Shown here in pieces: positions 1,035 through 59,164 of a stretch of 64,000 bases of DNA. The DNA is from a phage, in sequence record PZ386974.1, one strand, 5' to 3'. Position 1 is the first letter of the stretch, and each line of letters opens with the position of its first letter. The notes beneath the pieces are model-generated. The model searched no databases. It was not told the DNA's origin and was given only the letters and a program-made list of their open reading frames with translations. The position numbers and the translations under genes are program-made.

Positions 1035-1050
1035 GGGAGCCGAAGCTCCC
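1035..1050 (-). terminator. GC-rich hairpin GGGAGC-CGAA-GCUCCC (UUCG loop on the minus-strand transcript)
   Basis: Perfect 6-bp stem with tetraloop, 8 nt after stop of ORF 1058..1423; no strong U-run, so may be an RNA-stability hairpin rather than terminator. Confidence 0.45.
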
Positions 1051-1057
1051 AGTTAAA

Positions 1058-1423
1058 TTAGATATCAAATTCGTTAAGAACTACATCAAAGATTGCTTCG
1101 AGATGTTCAGGTTTAGCTCGGTTACTCAGGATATGACGAATCCAAGTTTTAACCAGAAGTTTACGATTAACACCATTCCAGCAAGGATGAGTACCTAAAT
1201 CACGTTGACGGAAATCATCATCTAATGCAATTTTGAAGTTGGAACCTTCCATTGTGATTGAAACCGTGATGCCATTTTCAAATCGCATATAAACATAATT
1301 AGGAGTCATATACTGCTCAATTTCACATACTGAACCATTTTTATGCTTCCACAAACAAACCATATCGATAGAACCAGCGATACCGTTAGAAACATATTTG
1401 CGTTCGAAGTTGGTGTAGTTCAT
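1058..1423 (-). CDS. hypothetical protein (121 aa)
   Basis: ORF track; ATG start; promoter-like element upstream. Confidence 0.55.
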   Translation of the reverse strand: MNYTNFERKYVSNGIAGSIDMVCLWKHKNGSVCEIEQYMTPNYVYMRFENGITVSITMEGSNFKIALDDDFRQRDLGTHPCWNGVNRKLLVKTWIRHILSNRAKPEHLEAIFDVVLNEFDI

Positions 1424-1464
1424 TTTATTCTCCAGATGTTTAAGTTGTTTGTTGGTACAGGTCT

Positions 1465-1493
1465 ATAATAACATAACCTGTACCAAAGTAAAC
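1465..1493 (-). promoter_or_regulatory. sigma70-type early promoter (-35 GTTTAC, 17-bp spacer, -10 TATTAT)
   Basis: Read on minus strand: GTTTAC at 1493..1488, TATTAT at 1470..1465, followed by conserved AGACCT box; embedded in inverted repeat ggtacagg/cctgtacc. Confidence 0.5.
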
Positions 1494-1497
1494 TGTT

Positions 1498-1866
1498 TTA
1501 TGCAACTTTAATCCAATTGTCTAAATTTAAAACACCTTTGGCTTTCATTTTTTCGATCAGGTTATCTGCTGTAATGCGTCCATTTTGATACCATGTAACA
1601 TCTTCAGAGTAACCAGTTTCTTCGTCAACATATGTTTCTGAACGAATTTTACCGGTAATAATAGTTTTTAATTCGTATGTGTCACCTGTGAAAAAGTTTG
1701 CTAACACAATTTTCCAAGAGAAATCATCTGAAGGACCTTCAGGGGTCATACAACTTACGATCTCAAATTGCTCTTTGTATAACATCCACTGGAATTCTTT
1801 AATTTCGATAGCTTTATAACCATCGTGGTCTTTACATTTGATGTATGAGTTCAGATTGATTTTCAT
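1498..1866 (-). CDS. hypothetical protein (122 aa)
   Basis: ORF track; ATG start. Confidence 0.55.
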   Translation of the reverse strand: MKINLNSYIKCKDHDGYKAIEIKEFQWMLYKEQFEIVSCMTPEGPSDDFSWKIVLANFFTGDTYELKTIITGKIRSETYVDEETGYSEDVTWYQNGRITADNLIEKMKAKGVLNLDNWIKVA

Positions 1867-1908
1867 TTTGTTCTCCAGGTTGTTTTATTGATTAGGTGGT
1901 ACAAGTCT

Positions 1909-1937
1909 ATAGTAACACATCCTACAGGAGAGTAAAC
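1909..1937 (-). promoter_or_regulatory. sigma70-type early promoter (-35 GTTTAC, 17 bp, -10 TACTAT)
   Basis: Minus-strand GTTTAC 1937..1932 and TACTAT 1914..1909 upstream of ORF 1498..1866. Confidence 0.5.
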
Positions 1938-1973
1938 ATCTTTTTAAACTTTTTCTGCCCTAAACGCACAAAA

Positions 1974-1989
1974 GGGAGCCGAAGCTCCC
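1974..1989 (-). terminator. intrinsic terminator hairpin GGGAGC-CGAA-GCUCCC plus U-run
   Basis: 6-bp GC stem, UUCG loop on minus transcript, A4 on plus strand just left of stem (U-run on the transcript); 5 nt after stop of ORF 1995..2174. Confidence 0.6.
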
Positions 1990-1994
1990 TAAAA

Positions 1995-2174
1995 TTATGC
2001 AACAACCTTTCCAAAACGAGAAGCATCATCTCGAAGAACTGCACGTGCTCTGCGCATGATCTTCTCAACTGTTTGATTAATACGAGAGTTCGACCCACGC
2101 TTGTATCCAGCGCGTTTAGAGGTACCATCAACTTTCTTTTCAACTGCTTTCTTTGCTTTAGCTTGTTTTGCCAT
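1995..2174 (-). CDS. small basic protein (59 aa, Lys/Arg-rich)
   Basis: Own translation: MAKQAKAKKAVEKKVDGTSKRAGYKRGSNSRINQTVEKIMRRARAVLRDDASRFGKVVA; ATG start, terminator immediately downstream; below ORF-track size cutoff. Confidence 0.4.
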   Translation of the reverse strand: MAKQAKAKKAVEKKVDGTSKRAGYKRGSNSRINQTVEKIMRRARAVLRDDASRFGKVVA

Positions 2175-2469
2175 TATAAATTCTCTTTAAATGAAAATGC
2201 AGGACTTATTGACATTGCCTGCGCAAGTCCTCAAGGGGAACATAGGTTTTGGATATTTAACGACAGGATAACCATAAACCCGTCATCATACCACCCACGA
2301 CTTAGACAGATAACCTTTTTCTGACGCGTGATAGTATAAAATACATTCAAGAGGTACACCGTAAAACTGCCGGGGTCTTAAAACTATAATGATTCGCAAA
2401 TCATTAATCAGACAGTTCGACGGCTCCTCGATTTTCTAGCCGCACTTAAGGTAGCGAATCACCTAAAAC

Positions 2470-2718
2470 TTATTTAAGGGTGATAACAAAATGACGTACT
2501 GCTTTACGAGCTGCAGAAGCCAAAGGCTTAGCGTATTTCAGTTCATCTTTTGCTTCCAGTTCAGAAGCCAAAGCTGCCTGTACCGGGTTCAGATGTTTGA
2601 AATATCGCAGGATTTCAAGAGCTTCGGCTTCAACATCAATAGATGCGCCATAGTTTTCGTGGCCGTTATTCCATGCGTTTCGTTGCAGTTCAAGAGCGTG
2701 TTGTAATTGTTTAATCAT
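2470..2718 (-). CDS. rIII: rIII-like lysis-inhibition accessory protein (82 aa)
   Basis: 82-aa ORF beside gene 31 on the same strand; size and position match T4 rIII as recalled. Confidence 0.5.
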   Translation of the reverse strand: MIKQLQHALELQRNAWNNGHENYGASIDVEAEALEILRYFKHLNPVQAALASELEAKDELKYAKPLASAARKAVRHFVITLK

Positions 2719-2834
2719 TTTAAATTCTCAATTCGAGATAATATTTAGTAGCCACGTTCGTCTGAATTTCACTTCCTTTCGACAAGTCTCTCAGTTGTAG
2801 GCTACCGCTTAGAAGAGTGTTCTCTTCATATAGT

Positions 2835-2842
2835 TATTTATA
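2835..2842 (-). promoter_or_regulatory. possible late promoter (TATAAATA on minus strand)
   Basis: Exact TATAAATA octamer just 3' of gene 31 stop, 117 nt upstream of the rIII ATG. Confidence 0.3.
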
Positions 2843-3175
2843 TCACTTATAAAGACACGGAATAGCTTTATAGTGGCATGTTACGAATTTCTGTTTAATT
2901 TCTTTAGGATGTTTAAGTCCCAAAGCCACAAATGGATGTGGAACATTTCGAATTTGTCCAACTGGTAGTGGAGTCAAATCACCGACTTCAACAAAACCTT
3001 CAGGAACATCAGGACCTACAGAATGAACTACACATAGTTCAGGAACTTCACCTTGAACACGTTTACCAATCACAAGTCCTGATTCGGTAACTTCTTCATC
3101 ACCTGCTTGAGCGGGTTCAGAAACCAGAATGACATATTCACCAACAGCACGAATTGGGAGTTGTACTTCAGACAT
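2843..3175 (-). CDS. 31: co-chaperonin gp31 (GroES analogue)
   Basis: 110-aa [31 protein letters not shown]..., near-identical to T4 gp31 as recalled; ATG start. Confidence 0.9.
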
Positions 3176-3232
3176 CTTATTTCCTTGTTGTTTGACGATA
3201 GATTAATAATACCATACTATTCGTAAAGCATA

Positions 3233-3541
3233 TTACATAAGAAGCAAACGTTCTACTGGAGTACCATCAACCGAAATTACTTTATCAAGGCGGAAAGAAC
3301 GCCACTGACCTAACTCGGTATCGAATGCTCGAACTGATTCACGAGGTTCAGAACGAACTTCTGTTGATGGGTTACTATTTTCATATTTGACTTCAAGTTC
3401 ATCGCGGGAGGCAAACATCGTACGAACATCACCGTTAGCCTTTTCAAATACAACACAATGAACGCCTACAGACAGAATAGTTTTAATACGTTCACGAAGA
3501 ACCATAGTTTCTCGTTCAGTTAAAATCATATTATTCACCAC
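3233..3541 (-). CDS. hypothetical protein (102 aa)
   Basis: ORF track; lies between cd and 31. Confidence 0.5.
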   Translation of the reverse strand: MVNNMILTERETMVLRERIKTILSVGVHCVVFEKANGDVRTMFASRDELEVKYENSNPSTEVRSEPRESVRAFDTELGQWRSFRLDKVISVDGTPVERLLLM

Positions 3542-4112
3542 AAAAGTTTCGGATTTGTTCCCAATTCAGAGAACGAAGATTATTACGAGAGTACTGAATT
3601 ACTTCAATACCGGCTTGTTTTAGAATTTCGGCCCAATTTTCAGGAGATCTGTCATATAATTCCGCGTATACAACCTTTTTAATACCTGACTGCGTAATAG
3701 CTTTAGTGCAATCAGGACACGGAGAAAGCGTAGTATATAACGTAGCACCTTCAATAGAATTACCTTTACGAGCTGCAAACAAAATTGCGTTCAGTTCCGC
3801 ATGGATTTCGTTATTAGCAGACCATGCACTATGAGCGGCCCGATGTTCTTTAGCCAAAACAAAATTATCCACCCGTCCAAATGCTGTAGTGCCTTCTTTA
3901 TGCCCAGCAACGATGACCGGGCTTGGTTTATTCTTCAACCAACCGTTTTCGGATGCATGTTCGCAACAGTTTGTACCACCTGAAGGAGAGCCATTATAAC
4001 CTGTAGAAATAATGCGTCCATCCTTTTCAATGACGGCACCAACTTTCCATGAACAACATTTTGATTCTTGAGAAATCAGATATGCAATCTGAAGGTATGT
4101 GCTAGCTTTCAT
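3531..4112 (-). CDS. cd: dCMP deaminase
   Basis: 193 aa; zinc-binding HAE and PCxxC motifs (HAELNAI...SPCPDC); size matches T4 Cd; ATG overlaps upstream stop (TAATG). Confidence 0.9.
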   Translation of the reverse strand: MKASTYLQIAYLISQESKCCSWKVGAVIEKDGRIISTGYNGSPSGGTNCCEHASENGWLKNKPSPVIVAGHKEGTTAFGRVDNFVLAKEHRAAHSAWSANNEIHAELNAILFAARKGNSIEGATLYTTLSPCPDCTKAITQSGIKKVVYAELYDRSPENWAEILKQAGIEVIQYSRNNLRSLNWEQIRNFCGE

Positions 4113-5104
4113 TATTGAACCTTATTAATATAAGTTAACAGCTCTTTAGTTTGTTCCCAACTGATGCACGCATCGGTAACGGAAACGCCATAGGACATAT
4201 TATCAGAAATTTTTTGATTTCCTTCATGTAGGAATGATTCTATCATAATTCCTTTGACCAAATCATTAGCTGCTAAATTTTTACCAATACCAATTTGATT
4301 GCTATAATGCCCATCAGCGTTTGCATGGCTACAGTCAACCATTACATAATGATTCAGACCTACTGCCCTTGCTTTGTTAGAAGCTTCTTGAATATCAGAA
4401 GAATGATAGTTCGGGCCGTTGGTCCCACCACGCAATACGATATGCGTATTCTGATTACCTTCAGCTTCAACAATGCCTACAGTACCATCGACGTCCATAC
4501 CCATATACCGATGAGGCCAGGCGGCACTATACATCGCGTCTGTAGCTACTTTAATAGAACCATTGGTTGCGTTCTTGAAGCCTACGCACATCGGTAGACC
4601 TGAAGCAATTTCACGATGTGTCTGACTTTCAGTCGTACGGGCGCCAATAGCAACCCATGAGAAAATACCAGAAAGATACTTAATCGTGAATGGGTCTAAT
4701 ACTTCAGTTGCTAATGGAAGTCCCATACGTAGAAGTTTACGACACAATGTTCGTGCAACTATAAGACCGTGGTTCATATCAAAACTTCCGTCAAGATATG
4801 GATCATTTACAAGACCTTTCCAACCTACGGTAGTTCGAGGCTTTTCAAAATAAACGCGCATCACTAACAGAACATTAGGAAGACGAGTTTGAAGTTCGGC
4901 CAGACGTTTGCCGTATTCAACAGCAGCAATAGGGTCATGAATTGAACAAGGACCTACAACAATAAGTTTGCGTGGGTCTTCACCGTTCATAATCGAATTA
5001 ACTTGTTCGCGATGAGAAGCCACTTGTGATGCGTAAGCTTCCGACAAAGGAATAATCTCAGCCAGTTCTTTTGGAGAAATAAGTTTTCCGACGACAGGTA
5101 ACAT
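4112..5104 (-). CDS. 3-deoxy-D-arabino-heptulosonate-7-phosphate (DAHP) synthase, AroG/F/H-like class I
   Basis: 330 aa; motifs VVGPCSIHD, FEKPRTTVGWKGL, IGARTTESQ, VMVDCSHAN collinear with E. coli AroG; ATG start. Confidence 0.85.
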   Translation of the reverse strand: MLPVVGKLISPKELAEIIPLSEAYASQVASHREQVNSIMNGEDPRKLIVVGPCSIHDPIAAVEYGKRLAELQTRLPNVLLVMRVYFEKPRTTVGWKGLVNDPYLDGSFDMNHGLIVARTLCRKLLRMGLPLATEVLDPFTIKYLSGIFSWVAIGARTTESQTHREIASGLPMCVGFKNATNGSIKVATDAMYSAAWPHRYMGMDVDGTVGIVEAEGNQNTHIVLRGGTNGPNYHSSDIQEASNKARAVGLNHYVMVDCSHANADGHYSNQIGIGKNLAANDLVKGIMIESFLHEGNQKISDNMSYGVSVTDACISWEQTKELLTYINKVQ

Positions 5105-5225
5105 AACAATCCTTAGGAGATATAAACAGATTCTGATTCAACAATACCTTTAACCGGACCACGCCAGGCTAAGTTGGTAGTGCTCAGATTTATGACCATT
5201 CTCGATAGTAATGAGATAGCTCTCA

Positions 5226-5462
5226 TTATAGTGTTCCATATACTCGAGTTGCTTCAACAAGACCATCACTGCCTAATTTAAGGCTAGTAATCTGGCCACC
5301 ATCTTTAGGATTAACGATTATGAGAAAAGAACGTGGAGATTCTTGAATAACTCGTAATGTTGCATCCTGGAAACGTTCAGACACTTTATTGATGAGTGCT
5401 TGAGCAAATTCTTTTACTTTAATCTGAAATTCGTGCACTGTAATTGGGTTTTCACTTAGCAT
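5226..5462 (-). CDS. hypothetical protein (78 aa)
   Basis: ORF track. Confidence 0.45.
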   Translation of the reverse strand: MLSENPITVHEFQIKVKEFAQALINKVSERFQDATLRVIQESPRSFLIIVNPKDGGQITSLKLGSDGLVEATRVYGTL

Positions 5463-5523
5463 TCTGTTTTCCTCATTGTGTTGGTAGAGTTATAGTATCA
5501 CAACTCTACCATGTTGTAAACCA

Positions 5524-5799
5524 TTAAATTGCTTTGCATTCAATTTTTTGTGTACCGAAATTGATATCACATTGGATAACTAAATCGCCGTCAAGATCAA
5601 ATACCACGATGACGTGTGCAGACCCAGGGAGAAGAGTAATAGCAATAGAATCTACTTGGTCTGGGAGCAAAGCATTGAGTACATGAGTTAGTTGAGCATG
5701 AACTCTGAGTTCGGCTGCATTATCAAGCACTTCAAACATATTATTAGCAATAATCTGACTGAAGACTACCTTTACAATTTCAGAATAAGTTGGGAACAT
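5524..5799 (-). CDS. hypothetical protein (91 aa)
   Basis: ORF track. Confidence 0.45.
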   Translation of the reverse strand: MFPTYSEIVKVVFSQIIANNMFEVLDNAAELRVHAQLTHVLNALLPDQVDSIAITLLPGSAHVIVVFDLDGDLVIQCDINFGTQKIECKAI

Positions 5800-5806
5800 A
5801 ATTACC

Positions 5807-6031
5807 TCAGTGTACAGTATTTACTTTAACTCGAACAACAAATCGCTCGGTCGGTTCACCTACAGGAACAAACTCTACATGATATTCGCCTTTGTAACGA
5901 GTATTCAGATCATTACGAATTCCTGCGAGTTTGTTGATTAATGTAGGACTCATATTAAGTCCCACTAGTTTACGAAGCATTTTGTATGCTTCATCTTCGA
6001 TTTCATGATGTTTATCGTACATAGTTTTCAT
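5807..6031 (-). CDS. hypothetical protein (74 aa)
   Basis: ORF track. Confidence 0.45.
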   Translation of the reverse strand: MKTMYDKHHEIEDEAYKMLRKLVGLNMSPTLINKLAGIRNDLNTRYKGEYHVEFVPVGEPTERFVVRVKVNTVH

Positions 6032-6202
6032 TTAACCATTCAATTGCCTGGTCGACGTTATCAAATATACCGCCGTCCAACCATTCTTCATGTTCATAGT
6101 CCAGCACATCAATACCGAACCGTCCATTTACTAAAGGCCATACTACAAACAAATATTCTTTATGCTGTTCGATGACCTCAATCACTTCATATAATCGTTT
6201 CA

Positions 6203-6203
<1 letters not shown>
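6012..6203 (-). CDS. hypothetical protein (63 aa)
   Basis: ORF track; start overlaps pseT stop. Confidence 0.45.
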
Positions 6204-7289
<1,086 letters not shown>

Positions 7290-7290
<1 letters not shown>

Positions 7291-7589
7291 TATTTGATTC
7301 CTAAGAAAGCTTCAAGAATACGAATGTTGAGTTCGCGCCGGTCTTTATTAATTTCAGCAACGTTTTTATTAATTGACGTACTTCTAACGTTTGAAGAAAT
7401 AAATTTAATCATATGACTTTTGAGTTGATGCAAATCCAACCCTTTTTCTTTAGCAGCTTTACGAAGAGCTTTACCTGCTTCATCTAGTGCTTTTGCCGCA
7501 TCTTTATCATAATTGCCAAGTGGCATTCCGCGGCAGATATCAATATACTCATCAGACCGTTTGATGTAATTCTCTAGTAATGTTTTCAT
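7290..7589 (-). CDS. hypothetical protein (99 aa)
   Basis: ORF track; ATG start; consensus promoter upstream. Confidence 0.5.
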
Positions 7590-7617
7590 TTAGATTTCCT
7601 CAATTATCCATAGGAGC

Positions 7618-7647
7618 ATTATACTCTGCTCCCGAGAGTTTGTAAAC
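7618..7647 (-). promoter_or_regulatory. sigma70-type early promoter (-35 GTTTAC, 18 bp, -10 TATAAT)
   Basis: Minus strand GTTTAC 7647..7642 and TATAAT 7623..7618; the -10 sits in the loop of inverted repeat ggagca/tgctcc. Confidence 0.55.
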
Positions 7648-7871
7648 TATTTTACTAAAGATTCAATATACTCATGAAGAGCTTTAGTCGCTACTGCCCA
7701 CTTATTCTGATATTCATTTTTCAGATTAGCACGAGACTGAACTAACAAGCGATCATTAGTCGGAGGCAAAGATTCTAATCGTTGAATCTGGCGTCCATAA
7801 ATCATAGCCGCCATTTCAGATTCATAGATAAGCCCTTTAATGTATTCATGCTGTTCTTTAGTCATTGGCAT
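7647..7871 (-). CDS. hypothetical protein (74 aa)
   Basis: ORF track. Confidence 0.45.
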   Translation of the reverse strand: MPMTKEQHEYIKGLIYESEMAAMIYGRQIQRLESLPPTNDRLLVQSRANLKNEYQNKWAVATKALHEYIESLVK

Positions 7872-8152
7872 TTTTCCTCTTTTAAACCACTACGATAATA
7901 ACATATCATAGTCTTCTGGTCGTGTACATATCTTTTTACGTCGTTTAACCAGATACGAAATTCTTGAGAGTCTTCAAATGGCATTCCGACCCACGGATTA
8001 CCATCAATAACCTTTACTTGCCATTTCTGGTTATATTCAGCAATAGATTCTGGCCATGGCGGATGTAAAGTTTCTTTAGGGCTTAAGGGCACATCCTGGG
8101 CACATCCGGCCAAAATGCCAATAGATAATACAACTGCGGTTAATTTAATCAT
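7862..8152 (-). CDS. outer-membrane spanin (lipoprotein, Rz1-like)
   Basis: 96 aa; signal peptide with lipobox LAGC; Pro/Trp-rich mature region; overlaps preceding i-spanin-like gene by 4 nt; position matches T4 pseT.2 as recalled. Confidence 0.55.
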   Translation of the reverse strand: MIKLTAVVLSIGILAGCAQDVPLSPKETLHPPWPESIAEYNQKWQVKVIDGNPWVGMPFEDSQEFRIWLNDVKRYVHDQKTMICYYRSGLKEEKCQ

Positions 8153-8505
8153 TCTGAGAGCTTCCTGAGGTCTTCTGCAAAGGAATCGAAGGACCTGTTG
8201 ATTTGTTTTTCGACCAATCCTGGCTTACTTGCCACCACGTTCTTCTTCTTCGAATCCTTACGGAGCTTTTCATTTTCGGCCTTAAGTTGGTCAACTAAAA
8301 CACGGTTCTTATAAGTCATTTCTTCGATTGACTGATATTGAACCTTGAAGTCGTCTAATACTTTAGCATTGTTTTTAGCGGTCTCTTTGACAGAAGCTAA
8401 TTCAGTATTCAACGAATCAACTTTGTTGTTTAAGACAACTATTGTTATCGTAGAAACTAGAGCAAAAGCTGCTACTATAGCATAAATCGGATTTACTTTA
8501 AGCAT
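8149..8505 (-). CDS. inner-membrane spanin (Rz-like)
   Basis: 118 aa; N-terminal TM segment then charged coiled-coil-like region; adjacent to lipoprotein ORF; position matches T4 pseT.3 as recalled. Confidence 0.55.
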   Translation of the reverse strand: MLKVNPIYAIVAAFALVSTITIVVLNNKVDSLNTELASVKETAKNNAKVLDDFKVQYQSIEEMTYKNRVLVDQLKAENEKLRKDSKKKNVVASKPGLVEKQINRSFDSFAEDLRKLSE

Positions 8506-8993
8506 GTTTTAATAATCTCAATGATTTCATCTCGGGATAATCCATTGATAAGAACGGTTTTCGGACCATCGCACTGGATTTTGTACGATTCAAACAATAC
8601 ACACAACTCTTCTGCTGTATGATACGGACTTGAGATTCCGAGACGGTTGAATTTGTCGGTAAGAGGGTCGCAAATAATGTAGAATTTTATACCTGAGATA
8701 TGTACGTTTGGTTGACTAATATTAATGAACACATTAGCGTCATATTTAGTCAAATTGTTTTGAAGAAATTCTACCATGGCATTAACTGCTTCCGGCATCG
8801 CTTCACGTTTCTCTTCGGTGTAACGTGTTGAATATTCCTTTTGCTTTAACTTCTTTTTAGCATTTTTCGCTAGAGTAACACGTAGGTCAGTAAGATAACC
8901 AACTGCACGGCCTTTCTTAAAGACCCTGATTCCGTCTGTAGAATCACCAAATGCTGCCACAACCATATCGTTAGTAATCAATTGCATATTCAT
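8493..8993 (-). CDS. alc: Alc-like protein (host transcription shut-off)
   Basis: Track ORF 8493..9056 trimmed to ATG at 8993 (SD GAGGAG 6 nt upstream) giving 166 aa; synteny rnlA-alc-pseT.3 as in T4; sequence homology not verified. Confidence 0.45.
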   Translation of the reverse strand: MNMQLITNDMVVAAFGDSTDGIRVFKKGRAVGYLTDLRVTLAKNAKKKLKQKEYSTRYTEEKREAMPEAVNAMVEFLQNNLTKYDANVFINISQPNVHISGIKFYIICDPLTDKFNRLGISSPYHTAEELCVLFESYKIQCDGPKTVLINGLSRDEIIEIIKTCLK

Positions 8994-9023
8994 AATTTTC
9001 TCCTCGTGTTGTTGATAAAAGCC

Positions 9024-9053
9024 ATAGTAACACCTTCCTTGGTGTTTGTAAAC
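9024..9053 (-). promoter_or_regulatory. sigma70-type early promoter (-35 GTTTAC, 18 bp, -10 TACTAT)
   Basis: Minus strand GTTTAC 9053..9048, TACTAT 9029..9024, upstream of the alc-like gene. Confidence 0.45.
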
Positions 9054-9055
9054 CA

Positions 9056-10189
<1,134 letters not shown>

Positions 10190-10205
10190 TCAGTTAGTTT
10201 TTTAA

Positions 10206-10235
10206 ATTGTACCACAATCCTTGTGGTATGTAAAC
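10206..10235 (-). promoter_or_regulatory. sigma70-type promoter (-35 GTTTAC, 18 bp, -10 TACAAT)
   Basis: Minus strand GTTTAC 10235..10230, TACAAT 10211..10206, upstream of rnlA; spacer contains palindrome ccacaa/ttgtgg. Confidence 0.45.
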
Positions 10236-10645
10236 TACTTTTTCTTATGTTGGATATTCCAAGGCGGGTTGAACTTTTTGATAAAAAGTGGTTCTTCAAG
10301 GTCCATTGTTGCGATGGTCATTGAACCAAGTTCGTTGGTGACTGAAAGGTCAAAACATTGGCGGGCCCAGAATTCAACCTTTTTGCCTTGCATTAAGGCA
10401 TCCAAAATCATAAGTGATTTTCTTGAATCTGAAGTCTGGTCTTTTCGATTTATGGCTGTTCGATAATAGTTAATGCGTTTCTTTAAATTCTTGGTTTTAC
10501 CAATATACACAAGTTCGTCATCTATAGCAATAGCGTATATGACATTTTTCTTATTAGGGACATCAACTGTTTTAATTGTTGCATCTTCTAATAGCTCCAA
10601 TTCTGTATATTTAATAAAGGAATATTCGGCGGCAATATCTTTCAT
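10235..10645 (-). CDS. denA: endonuclease II (GIY-YIG family)
   Basis: 136 aa; VIYAIAIDDELVYIGKTKNLKKRINYY GIY-YIG core; length and sequence match T4 DenA. Confidence 0.88.
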   Translation of the reverse strand: MKDIAAEYSFIKYTELELLEDATIKTVDVPNKKNVIYAIAIDDELVYIGKTKNLKKRINYYRTAINRKDQTSDSRKSLMILDALMQGKKVEFWARQCFDLSVTNELGSMTIATMDLEEPLFIKKFNPPWNIQHKKK

Positions 10646-10653
10646 AATAAAGT

Positions 10654-10667
10654 GGGACCGAAGTCCC
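10654..10667 (-). terminator. hairpin GGGAC-CGAA-GUCCC (UUCG loop on the minus-strand transcript)
   Basis: Between nrdB stop (10672) and denA start (10645); 5-bp GC stem, tetraloop. Confidence 0.4.
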
Positions 10668-10671
10668 GTCC

Positions 10672-11847
10672 TTAGAAATATTTTTTGTATGAATTGATTA
10701 CATTTTGGTCTACATCATTATCAATTTGTGCGACAAGATAAGAACTGATTTCAACTTCCTGAGGAGCTGCTTGAACTAAATCAGAGTTCAGATATTCACG
10801 AATCCAAGGATACGGATGCTTTGTCGGAGCATCAGTGATTGGGCATGGCAAACCACACTGTTTCATACGAGACACAGTCAAGTAATCAACAAAAGCACAC
10901 ATACTCTGTGTATTGATGCCTGGGCATGTACCGTCTTTAAAGAGGTGTGCAGCCCATTCCTTCTCTTGACTATTTACTTCCATAAAAATGTCAACTGCTT
11001 CTTGTTCACATTCTTTAGCAATTTGAACCCACTCATCACCGTCAGTACCAGATTGAAGTTGACGGATAATGTACTGAGTACCCTTGAGATGGAGTTGTTC
11101 GTCACGAGCAATGAACTTCATAATCTTTGCATTACCTTCCATAATTTCCATATTTTTATGGAAGTTGAAAGTACATGCAAATGATACGTAAAAACGAATA
11201 GCTTCTAAGGCGTTGATAACATGCAAACAGAGATAAAGAGACTTCATTAAATCACGCTTGGCGTTAAACATTATTTCTTCGTACATCTCAATATCATTCT
11301 GCTGGCATGAGCCTATTGAATACTCATAATTTTCCTTAGCATTTTCCCAATGACGAGTCTTGACTAGAACATCATCGTAATATTTACCTATTGATTCAGC
11401 TCGTTTCATGATTGCTTCGTCTAATACAATCTCATCAAATACCTTAGATGGGTCTGTATAAAGATTTCGCATAATATGAGTATACGAACGAGAGTGAATA
11501 GTTTCACTGAAAGTCCATGTTGCAACCCATGTATCTAATGAAGGGTCAGAAATCAGTGCCATAAGTACCGCAGATGGGGCCCTGCCTTGGATAGAATCTA
11601 ATAATGATTGATACTTAAGATTGTTTGTAAAGATGTCCTGTTGGAACTGAGGAAGCTTATTGAACTGCGCAGAGTCCAACATCAAGTTTACCTCTTCGGG
11701 GCGCCAGAAAAATGACAATTGCTTTTCGGTCAAATCTTCAAAAACTTTATGGCGTTGAATATCATAACGCGCAATACCAAGACCAGAACCAAAGAACATC
11801 GGTTCATTCAAAACATCGACTTGTTGTGTGTTAAAAACTGTACTCAT
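10672..11847 (-). CDS. nrdB: ribonucleotide reductase small (beta) subunit
   Basis: Ferritin-like RNR R2 fold with di-iron ligand motifs; track start 11859 is GTG, in-frame ATG at 11847 gives MSTVFNTQQ...; single uninterrupted ORF. Confidence 0.9.
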   Translation of the reverse strand: MSTVFNTQQVDVLNEPMFFGSGLGIARYDIQRHKVFEDLTEKQLSFFWRPEEVNLMLDSAQFNKLPQFQQDIFTNNLKYQSLLDSIQGRAPSAVLMALISDPSLDTWVATWTFSETIHSRSYTHIMRNLYTDPSKVFDEIVLDEAIMKRAESIGKYYDDVLVKTRHWENAKENYEYSIGSCQQNDIEMYEEIMFNAKRDLMKSLYLCLHVINALEAIRFYVSFACTFNFHKNMEIMEGNAKIMKFIARDEQLHLKGTQYIIRQLQSGTDGDEWVQIAKECEQEAVDIFMEVNSQEKEWAAHLFKDGTCPGINTQSMCAFVDYLTVSRMKQCGLPCPITDAPTKHPYPWIREYLNSDLVQAAPQEVEISSYLVAQIDNDVDQNVINSYKKYF

Positions 11848-11900
11848 TATATTTCTCACTTAGTTTTAACTCATCCATGAGTAAATTATAATCAAAAGTC

Positions 11901-14156
11901 TTAAAGCTTACAAGCAGAACAATCTTCAGCTTTAGGTGTTTCTAATTCATAGTCATCTGTACCCGACCCATCACGAGTGTTATGATAGTAGAGGTTTTTT
12001 CCGCCAAAGTACCAGAAGTAAAGCAGATCGTCAAGCATTACTGACATTGGCACTTTACCTTTCTCAAATACTGCAGGGTCATAGTAAGTATTAGCAGAAG
12101 CAGATTGGCACACCCATTTCAACATGATAGCAACTTGGGTCAAATAAGGTTTATTACCTTTCTTAGCAAGTTTCCACGCGTAGTCGTAAAGACTCATGTT
12201 ATGTTCGATATTAGGAACAACCTGTCGGAAGTTGCCTTCTTTAGATTCTTTAATACTTACTGGACCGCGCGGAGGCTCAATCCCGTTTGTAGAGTTCGAT
12301 ACTTGACTGCTTGACTCACAAGGCATGAGTGCAGACAACGTTGAGTTACGAATTCCATGTTCTTTGAGTTCAGCTCGAAGTTCTTCCCAGTCACAGACGT
12401 AGTTCGGGGCTGCGATTTGGTCAATCTTTTTATTGTACCAGTCGATAGGTAATTCGCCTCTAGACCATTTAGTGTCTGAATAATACTCGCAACGTCCTTT
12501 TTCTTTGGCGAGTTTGATTGAAGCTTTGATAAGGCCATATTGCAATCTCTCAAACAATTCATGAGTCAAATCGTTAGCGTCTTCATATGAAGCAAAGTTA
12601 GAAGCTAACCATGCAGCATAGTTCGTCACACCGACACCGAGGTTTCGACGCTTTTTAGCTTTTAAAGCTTCTGGAACCGGATAATCTTGATAGTCTAACA
12701 GGTTATCAAGTGCACGTACTTGTACTTCAGCAAGTTCATTAATTTTATCTTGGTCTTGCCAATCAAATTTATCTAATACAAAAGCAGATAATGTGCATAA
12801 ACCGATTTCAGCGTCAGGTCCATTCACATCATTAGTTGGAATAGCGATTTCACAACATAAGTTACTTTGACGAATTGGAGCTTTTTCACGAATAAATGGA
12901 GTGTAGTTATTCGTGTTATCAACAAACTGCGGATAAATTCGAGCAGTGCCAGAACGTTCAGTCATGAACAATTCAAAGAGTTCTAGTGCTTTGATTCTTT
13001 TCTTTCTGATTGTTGGGTCTTTTTCAGCTTTCTCATAAAGCTCACGGAATTTATCTTGATCTTCAAAGAACGAGTAGTATAGTTCGCCTGACATTTCGTG
13101 AGGGCTAAATAAAGTAATATAATCATTTTTGCCAAGGCGTTCCATCATGAGGTCATTAATCTGAATTCCATAGTCCATATGTCGAATACGGTTTTCATCC
13201 ACGCCTTTGTTATTTTTCAGAACTAATAGGTTCTCTACTTCTAAGTGCCACATCGGATAATACGCTGTAGCAGCACCGCCACGAATACCACCTTGAGAAC
13301 AAGATTTTACTGCAGTTTGGAAATGTTTCCAGAATGGAATAACACCTGTATGTCGAACTTCACCCATACCGATCTTAGAACCTTCTGCACGAAGCATACC
13401 AACGTTGATACCGATACCAGCTCGTTTAGAAATATATTCAATAATTGATGCTGAAGTTTTGTTAATAGATTTTAACGAATCACCGGCTTCAATAACTACA
13501 CAACTAGAGAACTGGCGAGTCGGAGTACGAGCACCTGCCATAATTGGGGTTGGCAATGAAACTTGATGAGTAGAAACGGCATCATAAAAACGAATAATAT
13601 GTTTCAAACGGTCATGAGTTTCGTTTTGGTGTAAGGCCATGCCAATAGCCATGATAGCAAACTGGGGAGTTTCATAAATCTTCCCAGTTGTTTTATCTTT
13701 AACTAGATATTTTTCTTTAAGCTGCATAGCACCAGCATAAGTCAGGTCAAAGTCTCGTCCATGTTTAATCTGTGAATCGAGATAAATGATTTCTTCTGCT
13801 GAATATTGAGACAACAGCTCAGGGTCATATTTGCCTTCATTAACACAATAAGAAATATGGTCGATAAAAGCAGGCGGTTCAAACTGCCCATATACATCTT
13901 TACGAAGTGCAAACATTAGCCCTTTGGCGGCGACATACTGATAATCAGGTTCTTCGACAGAAATCGAGTTAGCTGCAACTTTAATACAAATCTTCTGAAT
14001 ATCTTTGGTGCTCATCCCGTCAACAAGATGGGTCTTAATTTCTTCGTACAATTCATATGGGTCAATTTGTGTTCCTTCACATTGCCAAGTTAAGACTTGA
14101 ATAATTTTCTGTGCATCAAAATTTTGGGATACACCACTGCTCTTAGTTACTTGCAT
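11901..14156 (-). CDS. nrdA: ribonucleotide reductase large (alpha) subunit
   Basis: 751 aa class Ia RNR R1; ATG start; adjacent to nrdB. Confidence 0.93.
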   Translation of the reverse strand: MQVTKSSGVSQNFDAQKIIQVLTWQCEGTQIDPYELYEEIKTHLVDGMSTKDIQKICIKVAANSISVEEPDYQYVAAKGLMFALRKDVYGQFEPPAFIDHISYCVNEGKYDPELLSQYSAEEIIYLDSQIKHGRDFDLTYAGAMQLKEKYLVKDKTTGKIYETPQFAIMAIGMALHQNETHDRLKHIIRFYDAVSTHQVSLPTPIMAGARTPTRQFSSCVVIEAGDSLKSINKTSASIIEYISKRAGIGINVGMLRAEGSKIGMGEVRHTGVIPFWKHFQTAVKSCSQGGIRGGAATAYYPMWHLEVENLLVLKNNKGVDENRIRHMDYGIQINDLMMERLGKNDYITLFSPHEMSGELYYSFFEDQDKFRELYEKAEKDPTIRKKRIKALELFELFMTERSGTARIYPQFVDNTNNYTPFIREKAPIRQSNLCCEIAIPTNDVNGPDAEIGLCTLSAFVLDKFDWQDQDKINELAEVQVRALDNLLDYQDYPVPEALKAKKRRNLGVGVTNYAAWLASNFASYEDANDLTHELFERLQYGLIKASIKLAKEKGRCEYYSDTKWSRGELPIDWYNKKIDQIAAPNYVCDWEELRAELKEHGIRNSTLSALMPCESSSQVSNSTNGIEPPRGPVSIKESKEGNFRQVVPNIEHNMSLYDYAWKLAKKGNKPYLTQVAIMLKWVCQSASANTYYDPAVFEKGKVPMSVMLDDLLYFWYFGGKNLYYHNTRDGSGTDDYELETPKAEDCSACKL

Positions 14157-14243
14157 ATATTCCTCAGTATAGGTTGATAGACATTACTCCAAACGGGATA
14201 GTATTTATCCCGTTAATTTATTATACACCTTTAAACTGAAGCG

Positions 14244-14498
14244 TTAATTATCCTTAGCAATAATTTCTTCGTATTCTTTAGGTGTCAAGACTGTGATATT
14301 GAAATAAACCAACGGTTCTTTTTCCATACCGAATCCACCACAGAATTCACGATATTCATAAATTCGTTCATGTGAATAACAAATGAATCGTTCACCTTTA
14401 ACTGTGATTTCACTATTTGGTGAAGGGATATCCAGTTCACTTGGATTTTTCATTTCAAAAATTGTGGTGCCATATGAATTAATAAAACGTAAAATCAT
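14244..14498 (-). CDS. hypothetical protein (84 aa)
   Basis: ORF track; between nrdA and td. Confidence 0.5.
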   Translation of the reverse strand: MILRFINSYGTTIFEMKNPSELDIPSPNSEITVKGERFICYSHERIYEYREFCGGFGMEKEPLVYFNITVLTPKEYEEIIAKDN

Positions 14499-14499
14499 T

Positions 14500-16185
<1,686 letters not shown>

Positions 16186-16187
16186 AA

Positions 16188-16436
16188 TTATTTCCTCAGA
16201 TTTTTCTTAACAACTTTCCAATCAGCTTTAAACTGATCGACGTCAGAATGATAAATCCAGAATCCTGCACTTTCACCATCTTCGTAGAGTGGACATCCAT
16301 CACATTCTTCGTTCCAACCCATTTCGCGTAAAGCTTCTTCAGCTTGTTCAAGGAGTTCAGCGTCTTTACCAACAATGTTGAAGTACCATTTACCTCTAAC
16401 TTCAGAATCTTTGATGCTCTGGCGTTGCAATCTCAT
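16188..16436 (-). CDS. hypothetical protein (82 aa)
   Basis: Track ORF starts with GTG at 16451; in-frame ATG at 16436 has strong SD GAAGGAG. Confidence 0.5.
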   Translation of the reverse strand: MRLQRQSIKDSEVRGKWYFNIVGKDAELLEQAEEALREMGWNEECDGCPLYEDGESAGFWIYHSDVDQFKADWKVVKKNLRK

Positions 16437-16498
16437 TTTATTCTCCTTCACTTTTGATTTGATAGGGCTACTATAACATAACCCTATCTGATTGTATA

Positions 16499-16903: not shown

Positions 16904-16932
16904 TTTGATTTCCTCATGTTGTTGATATGACT

Positions 16933-16961: not shown

Positions 16962-16992
16962 AACTTTTTCGGTAATTTATAGATACTCAAAA

Positions 16993-17010: not shown

Positions 17011-17016
17011 GATTTA

Positions 17017-25342: not shown

Positions 25343-25343
25343 G

Positions 25344-44049: not shown

Positions 44050-44100
44050 GTTGTCTCCTCGTTATGAAGGTATTCTATCATCCGAAATCTAAAGCAAAAA

Positions 44101-44112
44101 GGGCCGAAGCCC
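44101..44112 (-). terminator. hairpin GGGC-CGAA-GCCC flanked by A5/T-rich runs
   Basis: Between ORF 44113..44535 stop and gene 39 start. Confidence 0.45.
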
Positions 44113-44535
44113 TTATTTAAATTTAATTTTCTGAAGTGCATCAATTGCAGCCAAACGCCCTTGTTCACTTTTAACTGTAATGACCACATCGCCTGATACG
44201 ATCACCGAACCATCAACAAATTCTATAGAGCCTTTTTTGAAATCGACAGCTGTATCTGGTTCCGGAACTTCTTCAAAGAATTTAAATTCTGCACCATAAA
44301 GCAGAATATCACCTTGCATACTAATGATTGTACGTCCAGGTCCATCGGTTTCAGCGGCAATCATTGAAACACCGTAACCAATCATCTCTTCTACAATAAA
44401 ATCTCTTGATAATAAAACTGTATGCAGAGTAGTGTTAAGACGTTTACCAGTTGTATTAAGAATTCTCAAGAAATTATCTTCTTGACCTTTGATAATACGA
44501 TATTTCTTACCAACTTCAAAACCTTTAAAAGCCAT
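44113..44535 (-). CDS. hypothetical protein (140 aa)
   Basis: ORF track; ATG start; occupies the slot upstream of gene 39 where T4 has goF/39.x. Confidence 0.5.
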   Translation of the reverse strand: MAFKGFEVGKKYRIIKGQEDNFLRILNTTGKRLNTTLHTVLLSRDFIVEEMIGYGVSMIAAETDGPGRTIISMQGDILLYGAEFKFFEEVPEPDTAVDFKKGSIEFVDGSVIVSGDVVITVKSEQGRLAAIDALQKIKFK

Positions 44536-53452: not shown

Positions 53453-53525
53453 ATTGTTCTCCTCTTGAGTAAGTAAGAATATCTTAACACAGTTTTTAGT
53501 GGTTGTAAACTCTAGAAACGAAAAA

Positions 53526-53545
53526 AGGAATCCCGAAGGATTCCT
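53526..53545 (-). terminator. intrinsic terminator AGGAAUCC-CGAA-GGAUUCCU plus U-run (after soc)
   Basis: 8-bp stem, A6 on plus strand left of stem; 9 nt after soc stop. Confidence 0.65.
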
Positions 53546-53553
53546 TAAATTAT

Positions 53554-57047: not shown

Positions 57048-57333
57048 CTGTGATTTCGGTTACGATATCTTTGTTATCGAAATTAGGGTCACAATACAAG
57101 ACATAGTTGTACTGCATGATACCACCAGACTTAAGTTGTTCAACAACTTTATTAACCATATTAGGACGGTCTCGTTTAGTGATGTTCATGATATCAGAGA
57201 AGATTTGTTGTTCAACATCTTCTTGATTTGCAGTCATTGACCACTCACAGAGGTCTTTATCATAACCTGCCGTAACTGGAGCCGGTGTACATGATACTGC
57301 AAGTAAGATTGCTGCCAATGATAACTTTTTCAT
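57040..57333 (-). CDS. sp: Spackle-like periplasmic protein (superinfection exclusion / lysozyme inhibitor)
   Basis: 97 aa; signal peptide, mature region GYDKDLCEWSMTA...GGIMQYNYVLYCD resembles T4 Sp (61.3) as recalled. Confidence 0.6.
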   Translation of the reverse strand: MKKLSLAAILLAVSCTPAPVTAGYDKDLCEWSMTANQEDVEQQIFSDIMNITKRDRPNMVNKVVEQLKSGGIMQYNYVLYCDPNFDNKDIVTEITGE

Positions 57334-57396
57334 TTTAACTCCTTAGTTGATTTGATAGGACTACTATACTATAGTCCATCTATAATGTAAACAAGT

Positions 57397-57645
57397 TTAT
57401 TCTTTTTCGCGAATAATAATTACTTGTTGAGGCTGCTGAGCAGATTTCTTTTCGGCAACGATAGACCAAATTAAAGTTCCAATCCAACCAACCATCGTCC
57501 AGTTAAAGAGTAAAGATACAAAGAAGATTGCTGTTGTGCTTTTTGTGCCACGAATAAGTGCGATTATCCAAGGCAACATGTAAATGATGATTGAACCAAT
57601 ACCTGCGATTAAAACTGCTACTGAACTAGCTACGAATAATTCCAT
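57397..57645 (-). CDS. small integral membrane protein (82 aa)
   Basis: Two hydrophobic helices (VAVLIAGIGSIIIYMLPWIIALI; AIFFVSLLFNWTMVGWIGTLIWSIV) and charged C-tail. Confidence 0.5.
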   Translation of the reverse strand: MELFVASSVAVLIAGIGSIIIYMLPWIIALIRGTKSTTAIFFVSLLFNWTMVGWIGTLIWSIVAEKKSAQQPQQVIIIREKE

Positions 57646-57706
57646 GTTAATTTCCTCTTGATTTGTTATGTTTATAGTATCTTATTTTAACTTTGGTGTA
57701 AACCAA

Positions 57707-58075
57707 TTAGTTAAATTTGTTTAAACGTTCAATACACTGGATGTAGTTATTCGCTATTTGTTTCTGGGTAGGCTCTTTACCGGTTGTTTCAACATAGCGA
57801 ATGAATGCGATTTCAGTAGCCTGTAAGCAATGTTCTTTAACGCGTTGTTCTTTTGACAATGCTACAGTATCAGAGTCACGATACCGTTGAGCATGAGCAT
57901 CAGCTTGAATCATTCGATTACCTACAGTAACCGGGTCTTCCACTTCAACTTTAGGTTGGTCATACTGTTTAACATTCGGATTGTAAATCAATTGGCCAAC
58001 GTTATTAGGGATAAAGCCATGGGCACCACATCCGGTTAATCCGAATACCATTGCTAAAGCGATTAATTTTTTCAT
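57707..58075 (-). CDS. predicted lipoprotein (122 aa)
   Basis: Signal peptide with lipobox LTGC (MKKLIALAMVFGLTGC). Confidence 0.55.
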   Translation of the reverse strand: MKKLIALAMVFGLTGCGAHGFIPNNVGQLIYNPNVKQYDQPKVEVEDPVTVGNRMIQADAHAQRYRDSDTVALSKEQRVKEHCLQATEIAFIRYVETTGKEPTQKQIANNYIQCIERLNKFN

Positions 58076-58146
58076 TTCAATTTCCTCTGTAGTTGATAGA
58101 AAGATAGTAACACAGTATGCGGTGCTTGTAAACAGTTTATTTAAAA

Positions 58147-58335
58147 TTATCGAAAATCTGCTTCGAAAACTTTCTCGTCATTAACAAATGCTTTAACCAG
58201 TGCACTGTTCACTTCAGCAAGTTGTACCGTAACCCACTCGATTTCTTCGCGATCACCTGATAACATGATATCTTTAGTGAACATCTCACCGCTTTTAAAC
58301 CAGCCAATAAAAGTAACTTTAGTTAATTTGCTCAT
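58147..58335 (-). CDS. hypothetical protein (62 aa)
   Basis: ORF track; size and location compatible with a dmd-like gene, not verified. Confidence 0.4.
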   Translation of the reverse strand: MSKLTKVTFIGWFKSGEMFTKDIMLSGDREEIEWVTVQLAEVNSALVKAFVNDEKVFEADFR

Positions 58336-58649
58336 ATTTCCTCACAGAATGCCCATTCAGCATGATAAACTGTAGCACCTTTAGTATCATTCATTTGAAC
58401 TACATCTACCGGAGAAATTACTCGATAGAGACGTGGTTCACCTCCATAAGAGCGTGCTGCTCGTCCTGCATAAATCTTTGCTAAACCGATATCTTCAGTA
58501 AAGAATACACGATCCAAGTTTTTCTTACGTCCAGTTTCAGACAGAACTCCTGTTTCCTCAGGAGGACAAAGCATGTTTTCGATGTTAGCTGAACTACTTG
58601 AACCGTGATAAAAAATCTTAAATTCTGCTTTACAATCGATGGTTTTCAT
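58332..58649 (-). CDS. hypothetical protein (105 aa)
   Basis: ORF track. Confidence 0.5.
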   Translation of the reverse strand: MKTIDCKAEFKIFYHGSSSSANIENMLCPPEETGVLSETGRKKNLDRVFFTEDIGLAKIYAGRAARSYGGEPRLYRVISPVDVVQMNDTKGATVYHAEWAFCEEI

Positions 58650-58704
58650 TTTGTTCTCCAGTAGTTGATAGGTCTATAATAACACAACTACTGGAGAAGT
58701 AAAC

Positions 58705-59079
58705 TTAAAAATGTAATTTAGATACATCTGCGTTGATTTCACTTTGGTTTGCGTCATATGCAATTAAACGAACCGCTTTAGATGGGTCATTCAATGCATA
58801 GAAATGATGGAACATTGCTCGAACGATATCACCATTTACGAGTTCTACCTGGATAGGAGAACCTTTTTCGAGTTGGAAATGTTCATAAGCTTTGATGGTT
58901 CGCAGATAATCAAGTTTTTGATTTCCGGCTCCAACGATTTGTACGATACGTTTGCCCATGTTTTCCATACGAGATACAATAGATTTAGGAGCAAGAATAA
59001 CGTAGGTTGCCAGCGGAGAAACTACTTCAACAGTTGTGTTTTCGGTGATTGCAGTAAAAATTGCTTGAGACATATTCAT
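58705..59079 (-). CDS. hypothetical protein (124 aa)
   Basis: ORF track; ATG start. Confidence 0.5.
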   Translation of the reverse strand: MNMSQAIFTAITENTTVEVVSPLATYVILAPKSIVSRMENMGKRIVQIVGAGNQKLDYLRTIKAYEHFQLEKGSPIQVELVNGDIVRAMFHHFYALNDPSKAVRLIAYDANQSEINADVSKLHF

Positions 59080-59142
59080 AATGTTTTCCTCTTGGTTGGT
59101 GTAAGTACATCATATCATGCCTAGAGGAAGATGTAAACCCCG

Positions 59143-59164
59143 AAAGGAGACCGAAGTCTCCTTT
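59143..59164 (-). terminator. intrinsic terminator AAAGGAGAC-CGAA-GUCUCCUUU (after gene 41)
   Basis: 9-bp stem with UUCG loop on transcript, 4 nt after gene 41 stop. Confidence 0.6.

Follow-up and report, generated by a model that had tools for sequence, protein, structure and literature searches.

C(UUCG)G hairpins were reportedly described in phage T4 transcripts by Tuerk et al. in 1988 (PNAS 85:1364). Members of the class occur mainly between the cistrons of T4-type phage mRNAs and are marked by unusual thermal stability and by a block to reverse transcriptase. Twelve hairpins assigned to this class by a first-pass annotation were analysed in a stretch of phage DNA of 64,000 nucleotides (nt; sequence record PZ386974.1, hereafter the window), which was placed by megablast in Mosigvirus (Tevenvirinae), among the RB69/HX01-like T-even phages. 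The T4 intercistronic hairpins of the C(UUCG)G class are summarised, after Tuerk et al. 1988, in PMC8948821, and the window hairpins match them in loop, closing pair and intercistronic placement; the assignment was correct, and 6 of the 12 orthologous sites in T4 share the UUCG loop. The finding is already known within T-even biology: the class dates from 1988, and near-identical hairpins are annotated in a sister record (Mosigvirus vB_EcoM_SA79RD, OL960576). Three other described systems are close. Split ribosome-binding sites (RBSs) are known from genes 38 and 25 of T4 (Nivinskas and colleagues; reviewed in PMC3014915); the gene 38 hairpin is the positional ortholog of that at 29311, and the hairpin at 10654 has the same layout. 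Intrinsic terminators of E. coli and its phages share a G+C-rich stem of 5–9 base pairs (bp), a tetraloop and, at 8–10 of the sites, a U-rich tail, whereas the stems in the window start 0–7 nt past a stop codon, within the footprint of the ribosome, and 2–4 of them lack a U-tract. The composite promoter/stem-loop (PeSL) cassettes of T4-type phages (Arbiol 2010, PMC2839356; Comeau 2014, PMC4122927) have intergenic location and near-identical recurrence in common with the hairpins.

The hairpins exist, are enriched, strand-specific, constant in position, conserved and covarying, and they very probably act in RNA, with multiple functions rather than one, being placed directly after stop codons by this RB69-like T-even phage. 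All twelve were found within 1–2 nt of the positions first listed (Table 1), and coordinates vary by 1–2 nt with the counting of terminal A-U pairs. UUCG is present on the transcribed strand in 11 of the 12 (ten with CGAA on the plus strand, plus 25319) and not in ten, as had been counted; it is closed by C-G in every case. The loop at 29311 is C(CUCA)G, as had been noted, and is not a member of the C(UUCG)G class by sequence. At 11 sites the stop codon of an upstream open reading frame (ORF) either precedes the hairpin by 3–7 nt or shares 2 nt with it, so that the placement of all twelve within about 10 nt of a stop codon holds directly there, and at 33737 only by way of an unannotated ORF; stems start at −2 to +7 nt relative to the stop codon. 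Every site folds as drawn when the RNA is folded, a check that the first-pass annotation had proposed; by nearest-neighbour prediction the energies lie between −9.4 and −15.5 kcal/mol, and the z-scores range from −1.7 to −4.0.

Enrichment was assessed against 200 dinucleotide-preserving shuffles by counting perfect stems of at least 5 bp. UUCG hairpins of this kind number 14 in the window versus 0.68 ± 0.79 in the shuffles (maximum 3), and UUCG is the sole over-represented tetraloop (14 versus at most 3 for any other). All 14 are in mRNA sense; likewise, CUUCGG hexamers are held within a stem of at least 5 bp in 13/16 sense and 0/16 antisense cases. Loop orientation tracks transcription, with CGAA on the plus strand in leftward regions and TTCG in the rightward block 20302–30555, and extra stem pairs use G-U, which is possible on the sense strand only. 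Three UUCG hairpins were absent from the first list: 60900–60919, 35264–35277 and 23673–23686. The C-G closing pair and UUCG loop occur together at the 11 listed sites and at 60900 and 35264; of these hairpins, two are intragenic and eleven lie between genes or overlap with a stop codon. The hairpin at 23673–23686 was rejected as a class member: it has an A-U closing pair and a z-score of −1.65, lies inside gp34, is identical in T4 as coding sequence and is probably due to chance. A scan anchored on stop codons replaced a sliding 32-nt minimum free energy scan of both strands (302 matches at or below −9 kcal/mol, too unspecific). No Rfam family was matched at gathering score in a scan of the whole window.

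Table 1. Stop-adjacent and related hairpins of the window, with associated promoter motifs (loops in brackets, hairpin sequences in RNA sense).
Feature	Position	Strand	Context	Proposed assignment
UGGGAGC[UUCG]GCUCCCA	1034–1051	-	6 nt after stop of 30.7-like ORF (1058–1423); −14.1 kcal/mol, z −3.1	classed as non-terminator: 3′-end stabiliser or insulator
AGGGAGC[UUCG]GCUCCCU then UUUGUGCGUUU	1973–1990	-	4 nt after stop of 30.9-like ORF (1995–2174)	terminator-type hairpin with early promoter motif downstream
GGGAC[UUCG]GUCCC	10654–10667	-	between nrdB (stop 10672–10674) and denA (AUG 10643–10645)	
GGGAGAC[UUCG]GUCUCCC then UUUUGAGU	16993–17010	-	6 nt after gene 32 (ssb) stop	gene 32 terminator, early promoter downstream
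GGGAGAC[UUCG]GUCUCCC then AUUUUUG	25319–25336	+	5 nt after gene 35 stop	terminator plus gene 36 late promoter
GGGAC[CUCA]GUCCC	29311–29324	+	between gene 37 stop and gene 38 AUG (29335)	
AGGGAGC[UUCG]GCUCCCU then UUUGUGCAUUUUU	33736–33753	-	overlaps TAG of 26-codon motA.1-like ORF (33752–33832); gp52 stop 75 nt away	terminator, early promoter downstream
GGGGAC[UUCG]GUCCCC then UUUUUCUUU	37604–37619	-	5 nt after rIIB stop; AUG of next ORF 19 nt downstream	terminator or attenuator within operon
AAGCUCC[UUCG]GGAGCUU, tail CAUUUUAAUUUU	42216–42233	-	2-nt overlap with stop of fused gene 39 (42232–44049)	weak terminator or 3′-end element
AAGGGC[UUCG]GCCCUU then UUUGCUUUAG	44099–44114	-	2-nt overlap with stop of 39.1-like ORF	terminator
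AAGGAAUCC[UUCG]GGAUUCCUU then UUUUCGUUU	53525–53546	-	7 nt after soc stop	terminator, early promoter downstream
AAAGGAGAC[UUCG]GUCUCCUUU then CGGGG	59143–59164	-	3 nt after gene 41 stop; early promoter begins 4 nt downstream	poor terminator: 3′-end element or part of promoter cassette
UCCCCUUC[UUCG]GAAGGGGA	60900–60919	-	not listed at first; 8 bp, inside gene 40 (60620–60961)	
UAGCAGGAGCC[UUCG]GGCUCUUGUUG	35258–35283	-	not listed at first; 11 bp counting G-U, −16.5 kcal/mol	
Early promoter GTTTAC-N17-TACTAT	1909–1937	-	downstream of hairpin 1973	
Early promoter motif	16933–16961	-	downstream of hairpin 16993	
Early promoter motif	33683–33711	-	downstream of hairpin 33736	
Early promoter motif	53481–53510	-	downstream of hairpin 53525	
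Early promoter motif	59109–59138	-	downstream of hairpin 59143	
Late-promoter motif TATAAATA	25344–25351		directly after hairpin 25319	
PeSL-type promoter hairpin	1454–1484	-		
PeSL-type promoter hairpin	5482–5511	-		
PeSL-type promoter hairpin	7607–7637	-		
PeSL-type promoter hairpin	16461–16488	-		
PeSL-type promoter hairpin	~36225–36280	-		
PeSL-type promoter hairpin	36762–36791	-		
PeSL-type promoter hairpin	57354–57380	-		

Conservation was followed in a sample of ~150 T4-like loci around gp32, gp41 and rIIB, in which each site was located by the C-terminus of the protein encoded upstream; for 29311, the gp37 C-terminus with gp38 was available at 3 comparable loci only. At orthologous sites, 173 distinct stop-adjacent hairpins were collected, with UUCG in 114 (66 %), UCCG in 5 and GNRA loops in 4. 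From stop codon to UUCG stem the median distance is 4 nt (interquartile range 2–6), with 108 of the 114 stems starting within 10 nt, and each well-sampled site has 11–21 different 5′ arms. A hairpin is found after gene 32 in 29/30 orthologs (19 UUCG), with compensatory changes in 5 of 8 pairs (RNAalifold), after soc in 38/38 (29 UUCG) and after rIIB in 12/16 (11 UUCG), where the tails differ between lineages. After gene 35, UUCG is present in 13 of 21 orthologous hairpins on 12 different stems, and after gene 41 in 17 of 38; the hairpin at 42216 is not conserved beyond the closest relatives. The loop is constant and the stems vary with compensatory changes; structure and loop are therefore selected, and the stem sequence is not. 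The set is a clean natural example of one tetraloop being selected while its stems drift.

In T4, UUCG is found at the sites of 30.9, 35, 37/38, 39.1, soc and rIIB (the last with a 3-bp stem only), and the internal site of gene 40 has UUCG too. The 30.9 ortholog reads AGGACUCC[UUCG]GGAGUCCU followed by a U-run and the 39.1 ortholog AAAGGCC[UUCG]GGCCUUU; the soc stem (AAGGACUCC/GGAGUCCUU, versus AAGGAAUCC/GGAUUCCUU in the window) differs by one compensatory change from A-U to C-G. Where the window has UUCG, T4 has another loop after gene 32, after motA.1, after nrdB (GCAA) and after 30.7 (UUCA, stem GGGGC/GCCCC, likewise without U-tract), and it has no hairpin after gene 41, where a promoter with an embedded stem-loop starts at once. 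At gene 37/38 the window has CUCA and T4 has UUCG. Escherichia phage GADS24 (OQ703618.1), ~97 % identical to the window over roughly 68.1–132 kb of its genome, has GGGAGAC/GUCUCCC at the 30.9 site (1973) versus GGGAGC/GCUCCC in the window, a two-sided compensatory switch between stem families that are both present in the genome; together with the loop change at gene 38, this switch suggests either exchange between hairpin copies or fast compensatory turnover. In one T4-like contig (L126) the soc stem AGGGACUCC/GGAGUCCCU is kept and the sense-strand loop is inverted to CGAA, which is unique among the 38 sequences.

At 29311 and 10654, a Shine-Dalgarno sequence lies more than 20 nt from the AUG, with the hairpin between them and no nearer Shine-Dalgarno sequence. 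At 29311, AAGGAG (29303–29308, overlapping the gene 37 stop) is followed by 2 nt, the 14-nt hairpin, 10 nt and the AUG; it is the sole Shine-Dalgarno sequence of gene 38, with no purine-rich motif between stem and AUG, and the stem can be extended to 10 bp over 29306–29329 if G-U pairs are counted. The T4 site reads UAAGGAGAG-GGGC[UUCG]GCCC-N8-AUG. There, the structure cuts the spacing from 22 to 5 nt, and mutations that destabilise the intervening structures of T4 genes 38 and 25 lower translation initiation (PMC3014915). Judged by its position and layout, the hairpin at 29311 is the ortholog of this characterised split-RBS hairpin. Its translational role would therefore leave the loop free to drift, as in CUCA here, UUCU in GADS24 and UUCG in T4.

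The hairpin at 10654 follows AAGGA (10669–10673, overlapping the nrdB stop) after 1 nt and is itself followed, after 14 nt of hairpin and 8 nt, by the AUG of denA; again, no other Shine-Dalgarno sequence is nearby and no purine-rich motif lies between stem and AUG. Of 20 distinct T4-like sequences, 19 keep the layout and 17 of these have UUCG (T4 itself has UAAGGAG-U-GGGCC[GCAA]GGCCC-A-N7-AUG), and the stem shows compensatory double changes in 4 of 6 pairs (RNAalifold). Folding would shorten the Shine-Dalgarno-to-AUG spacing of ~23–26 nt to a usable length at 29311 and probably at 10654, where a spacing of ~23 nt is predicted to become ~9 nt. The hairpin at 10654 is thus probably a candidate split-RBS bridge for denA, combined with a weak attenuator. 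The two sites had been treated in the first-pass annotation like the rest, as terminators or as RNA-processing or stability elements, and they are better explained as bridges from Shine-Dalgarno sequence to AUG. Compared with the published split RBSs, both window hairpins have U-rich tails, and a translational hairpin or split RBS at denA/nrdB is not described in the searchable literature, absence from which is no proof of novelty. The nrdB/denA junction resembles the gene 38 split RBS and seems to be an undescribed relative of it, and by analogy its conserved geometry would be a mildly new point.

Termination–reinitiation would be another way to start translation at these two genes: a ribosome stopping at the UAA would melt the stem, and the 30S subunit would slide on to the AUG. 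The stop codon does overlap a Shine-Dalgarno-like sequence, the AUG is just 25–30 nt downstream, and one lineage (L032) has an ATGA overlap of nrdB with denA and no hairpin. Simple reinitiation, however, has no need of a stem that is conserved with compensatory changes in 19 lineages, and the T4 gene 38 mutations, which reduce the efficiency of initiation by destabilising the structure (PMC3014915), speak against it as well. We consider reinitiation unlikely at 10654 and 29311 and retain the bridge for both.

U-tails were scored as the U residues within the 8 nt that follow the G+C core of the stem, which ends at its last G-C pair. Five to seven U were found at 1973, 16993, 25319, 29311, 33736, 37604, 42216, 44099, 53525 and 10654, compared with 2 at 1034 and 3 at 59143. 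The earlier statement that only some hairpins are followed by a U-run, and that several are not terminators, is borne out by the last two, but it understates the tails, since 8–10 of the 12 are U-rich. From this, 7–10 hairpins would be intrinsic terminators or attenuators, namely 1973, 16993, 25319, 33736, 37604, 44099 and 53525, and more weakly 42216, 10654 and 29311. A terminator scan of positions 1–20000 called 16993 and 10654, and 1034 and 1973 were not called; 1973 was missed because its terminal A-U pair was counted as stem, which shortened the U-tract. In OL960576, several of the same hairpins are labelled "rho-independent terminator; WebGeSTer and TransTermHP": identical ones after gene 32, gene 35 and the motA.1-like ORF (16993, 25319 and 33736 in the window) and a closely similar one at 35264. 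The same record labels TATAAATA at gene 35 as a late promoter that overlaps the U-tract. It treats the 35258 hairpin as an intergenic terminator because the small 52.1-like ORF is not called there. No usable transcript-end map (e.g., Term-seq) for this phage or T4 was found in the literature searched.

These tails and calls are what could make all twelve plain rho-independent terminators, a reading that we regard as quite improbable. The hairpins at 1034 and 59143 do not fit it, and 60900 and 35258 have no U-run. At 29311 and 10654 the only Shine-Dalgarno sequence is upstream of the stem, and efficient termination would drop the downstream gene. The ribosome would, moreover, be expected to cover stems that start 0–7 nt past a stop codon (PMC4824070). 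Multiple functions, with termination as one of them, are preferred.

The early promoter motif GTTTAC-N16–18-TANNNT occurs 25 times in the window versus 3.0 ± 1.7 expected, with 23 occurrences on the leftward strand, and it stands 4–35 nt downstream of hairpins 1973, 16993, 33736, 53525 and 59143. Each of the five is followed over that distance by TTTAC-N17-TAnnAT, the promoter consensus of the T4/PST pair (Comeau, PMC4122927). Hairpin and adjacent early promoter at these five sites, and hairpin and TATAAATA at 25319, can therefore be read as composite terminator/promoter units. By our own reading, a MotA-box-like TGCTT with TAGAAT lies downstream of hairpin 44099. Published PeSLs mostly have the stem-loop between −35 and −10 or overlapping −10, whereas the UUCG hairpins lie upstream of −35, outside the promoter.

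The stop-adjacent stems start inside the mRNA footprint of a ribosome that occupies the stop codon. In an E. coli reporter, placing the stop codon 5 instead of 28 bp before the terminator tR2 reduced termination efficiency from ~90 % to <10 %, and uncoupling of translation restored it (PMC4824070). In the phage, the 5′ arm would be covered by a closely coupled ribosome, and RNA polymerase could pass the site; uncoupled transcripts would be the main targets of termination, and once the mRNA is complete the hairpin would fold and stabilise it. Ribosome gating of the phage hairpins is a notion that we infer by analogy with that reporter. If true, it would agree with the overlapping, polycistronic nature of T-even phage transcripts and could contribute to the requirement of T4 delayed-early RNA for protein synthesis, an old observation (PMC2988021). 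The constant stop-adjacent position would be a mildly new point, and it suggests that termination is linked to translation, which can be put to the test. A wider proposal can be offered only tentatively and is rather doubtful as a whole: that stop-adjacent placement is functional, that the hairpins serve across Tevenvirinae as translation-gated terminators and then as 3′-end stabilisers, and that nrdB/denA is a third, previously undescribed split RBS.

U-tracts are absent or poor at 1034 and 59143 and at the additional sites 60900 and 35258. At 1034, where the U-tract is absent, the GAGG and AUG of the next ORF follow within 11 nt; 35258 starts 21 nt after the ac stop, within the first codons of a 46-codon 52.1-like membrane ORF (35159–35299). 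These four hairpins would most likely block 3′-to-5′ exonucleases and so give stable 3′ ends after read-through and cleavage. The hairpin at 60900, which has no U-tract, is 34 nt after the uvsX stop and covers gene 40 codons 15–21 (SPSSEGE). A G+C-rich hairpin occupies the same codons in ~20 distinct sequences despite altered stem, loop and amino acids: T4 has UCCCCCUC[UUCG]GAGGGGGA, a synonymous compensatory pair relative to the window, and other variants are CCCCCUC[UCAG]GAGGGGG, UCUCCCUC[GGAA]GAGGGAGA and UCCUCCCC[UUCG]GGGGAGGA. By this comparison of sequences, 60900 is a conserved structural element inside coding sequence. In the 358 nt upstream of T4 gene 41, no stem-loop other than its ortholog is strong (−16.7 kcal/mol for the ortholog versus −7.1 or weaker for the rest). 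Where it deals with the region upstream of gene 41, PMC12152347 (Kim et al. 2025, citing Hinton 1989) places a T4 RNA 3′ end found in vivo directly after a stem-loop, and reports more RNA ends in that region in rho mutant hosts. The T4 UUCG hairpin appears to be the stem-loop named there. If so, this supports the view that members without a U-run define RNA 3′ ends, and the suggestion of the first-pass annotation that several are RNA-processing or stability elements gains indirect backing, from a hairpin that it had not listed.

Several points weigh against these functional assignments. Termination, read-through and stabilisation in this phage are all deduced from sequence. A number of U-tracts are interrupted, e.g., UUUGUGCG and ACUUUAUU, and termination efficiency cannot be predicted from them. 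The hairpins at 29311 and 10654 carry U-rich tails of their own, and at these sites the roles of terminator and RBS bridge are compatible and unranked. The case for gating comes from a single E. coli reporter study, in which the terminator was a different one, and the T4 hairpin at gene 40 was equated with the stem-loop of PMC12152347 from its being the only strong one.

That the palindromes function in DNA, where they would bind protein, form cruciforms or serve recombination, has some points in its favour: GGGAGC, GGGAGAC or GGAGAC, and GGGAC or GGGGAC each recur as stems three times, T4-type PeSL stem-loops have been proposed as recombination points (PMC2839356), and the stem type has switched at 1973 between the window and GADS24. 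The loop is nevertheless strand-specific in every case and oriented with transcription, G-U extensions of the stem form on the sense strand only, and the stems covary around a fixed asymmetric loop; a function in DNA is accordingly very improbable, and action in RNA is kept. Chance or a by-product of base composition, for which nothing speaks except the short stems (5–6 bp) at some sites, is already refuted by the excess over shuffles, the sense bias of the hexamers and the conservation across ~150 loci. The GGAG contained in many 5′ arms was considered as a cleavage site for RegB and set aside; it would be sequestered in the stem.

All genes of the window read leftward except those of the block 20302–30555 (simple ORF map). 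The gene order is 30.x/rIII/gene 31, pseT, rnlA, denA, nrdB/A, td, frd, 32, 59, 33 and rnh, followed by the rightward late block 34-35-36-37-38-t and then by asiA, motA, 52, ndd, denB, rIIB/A, 39, dexA, dda, modA/B, soc, 56, 61, 41, 40 and uvsX. Gene 39 (42232–44049, minus strand) is a single 605-codon ORF; in T4 this topoisomerase subunit is split into genes 39 and 60, with a mobA insertion and the gene 60 bypass hairpin. Gene 39 being unsplit here, the window contains no gene 60 bypass element.

The motA.1-like ORF at 33752–33832 (minus strand, 26 codons, MSALALGFLGAIAVLVIWLYWLDKHD) is hydrophobic and located as motA.1 is in T4. It starts with a TTG that overlaps the TGA of gp52, with GGAGG 5 nt upstream, and its TAG is inside hairpin 33736; T4 motA.1 likewise begins on the gp52 stop codon. 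The ORF is unannotated in both GADS24 and OL960576. For annotation, the hairpins are of use as reliable marks of gene ends that expose small unannotated ORFs such as this one.

A second class of hairpins, intergenic and with energies of −11 to −17 kcal/mol, has one stem arm on either side of the −10 element (TATAGT, TATAAT or TACTAT) in early promoters of the GTTTAC type (PeSL-type entries of Table 1). These hairpins match the published PeSL cassettes (PMC2839356, PMC4122927) and are labelled "terminators" by WebGeSTer in OL960576. Direct repeats of 86 nt, 95 % identical and 321 nt apart, were found at 33314–33399 and 33635–33720. Each contains a motA early promoter, a leader, a Shine-Dalgarno sequence and the first three codons (ATGTCTAAA), and the repeat at 33635–33720 includes the promoter downstream of hairpin 33736. 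The repeats flank a 71-codon ORF (33428–33643, phrog_6200, function unknown) and a hairpin with a GAAA loop (33399–33418). GADS24 has a gap of 187 nt at the repeats and is without the cassette, which many other Mosigvirus records have. The region 33314–33720 looks like the insertion or deletion of a PeSL-type cassette, and at hairpin 33736, the one considered in this respect, a variable ORF is flanked in the manner of a PeSL indel boundary.

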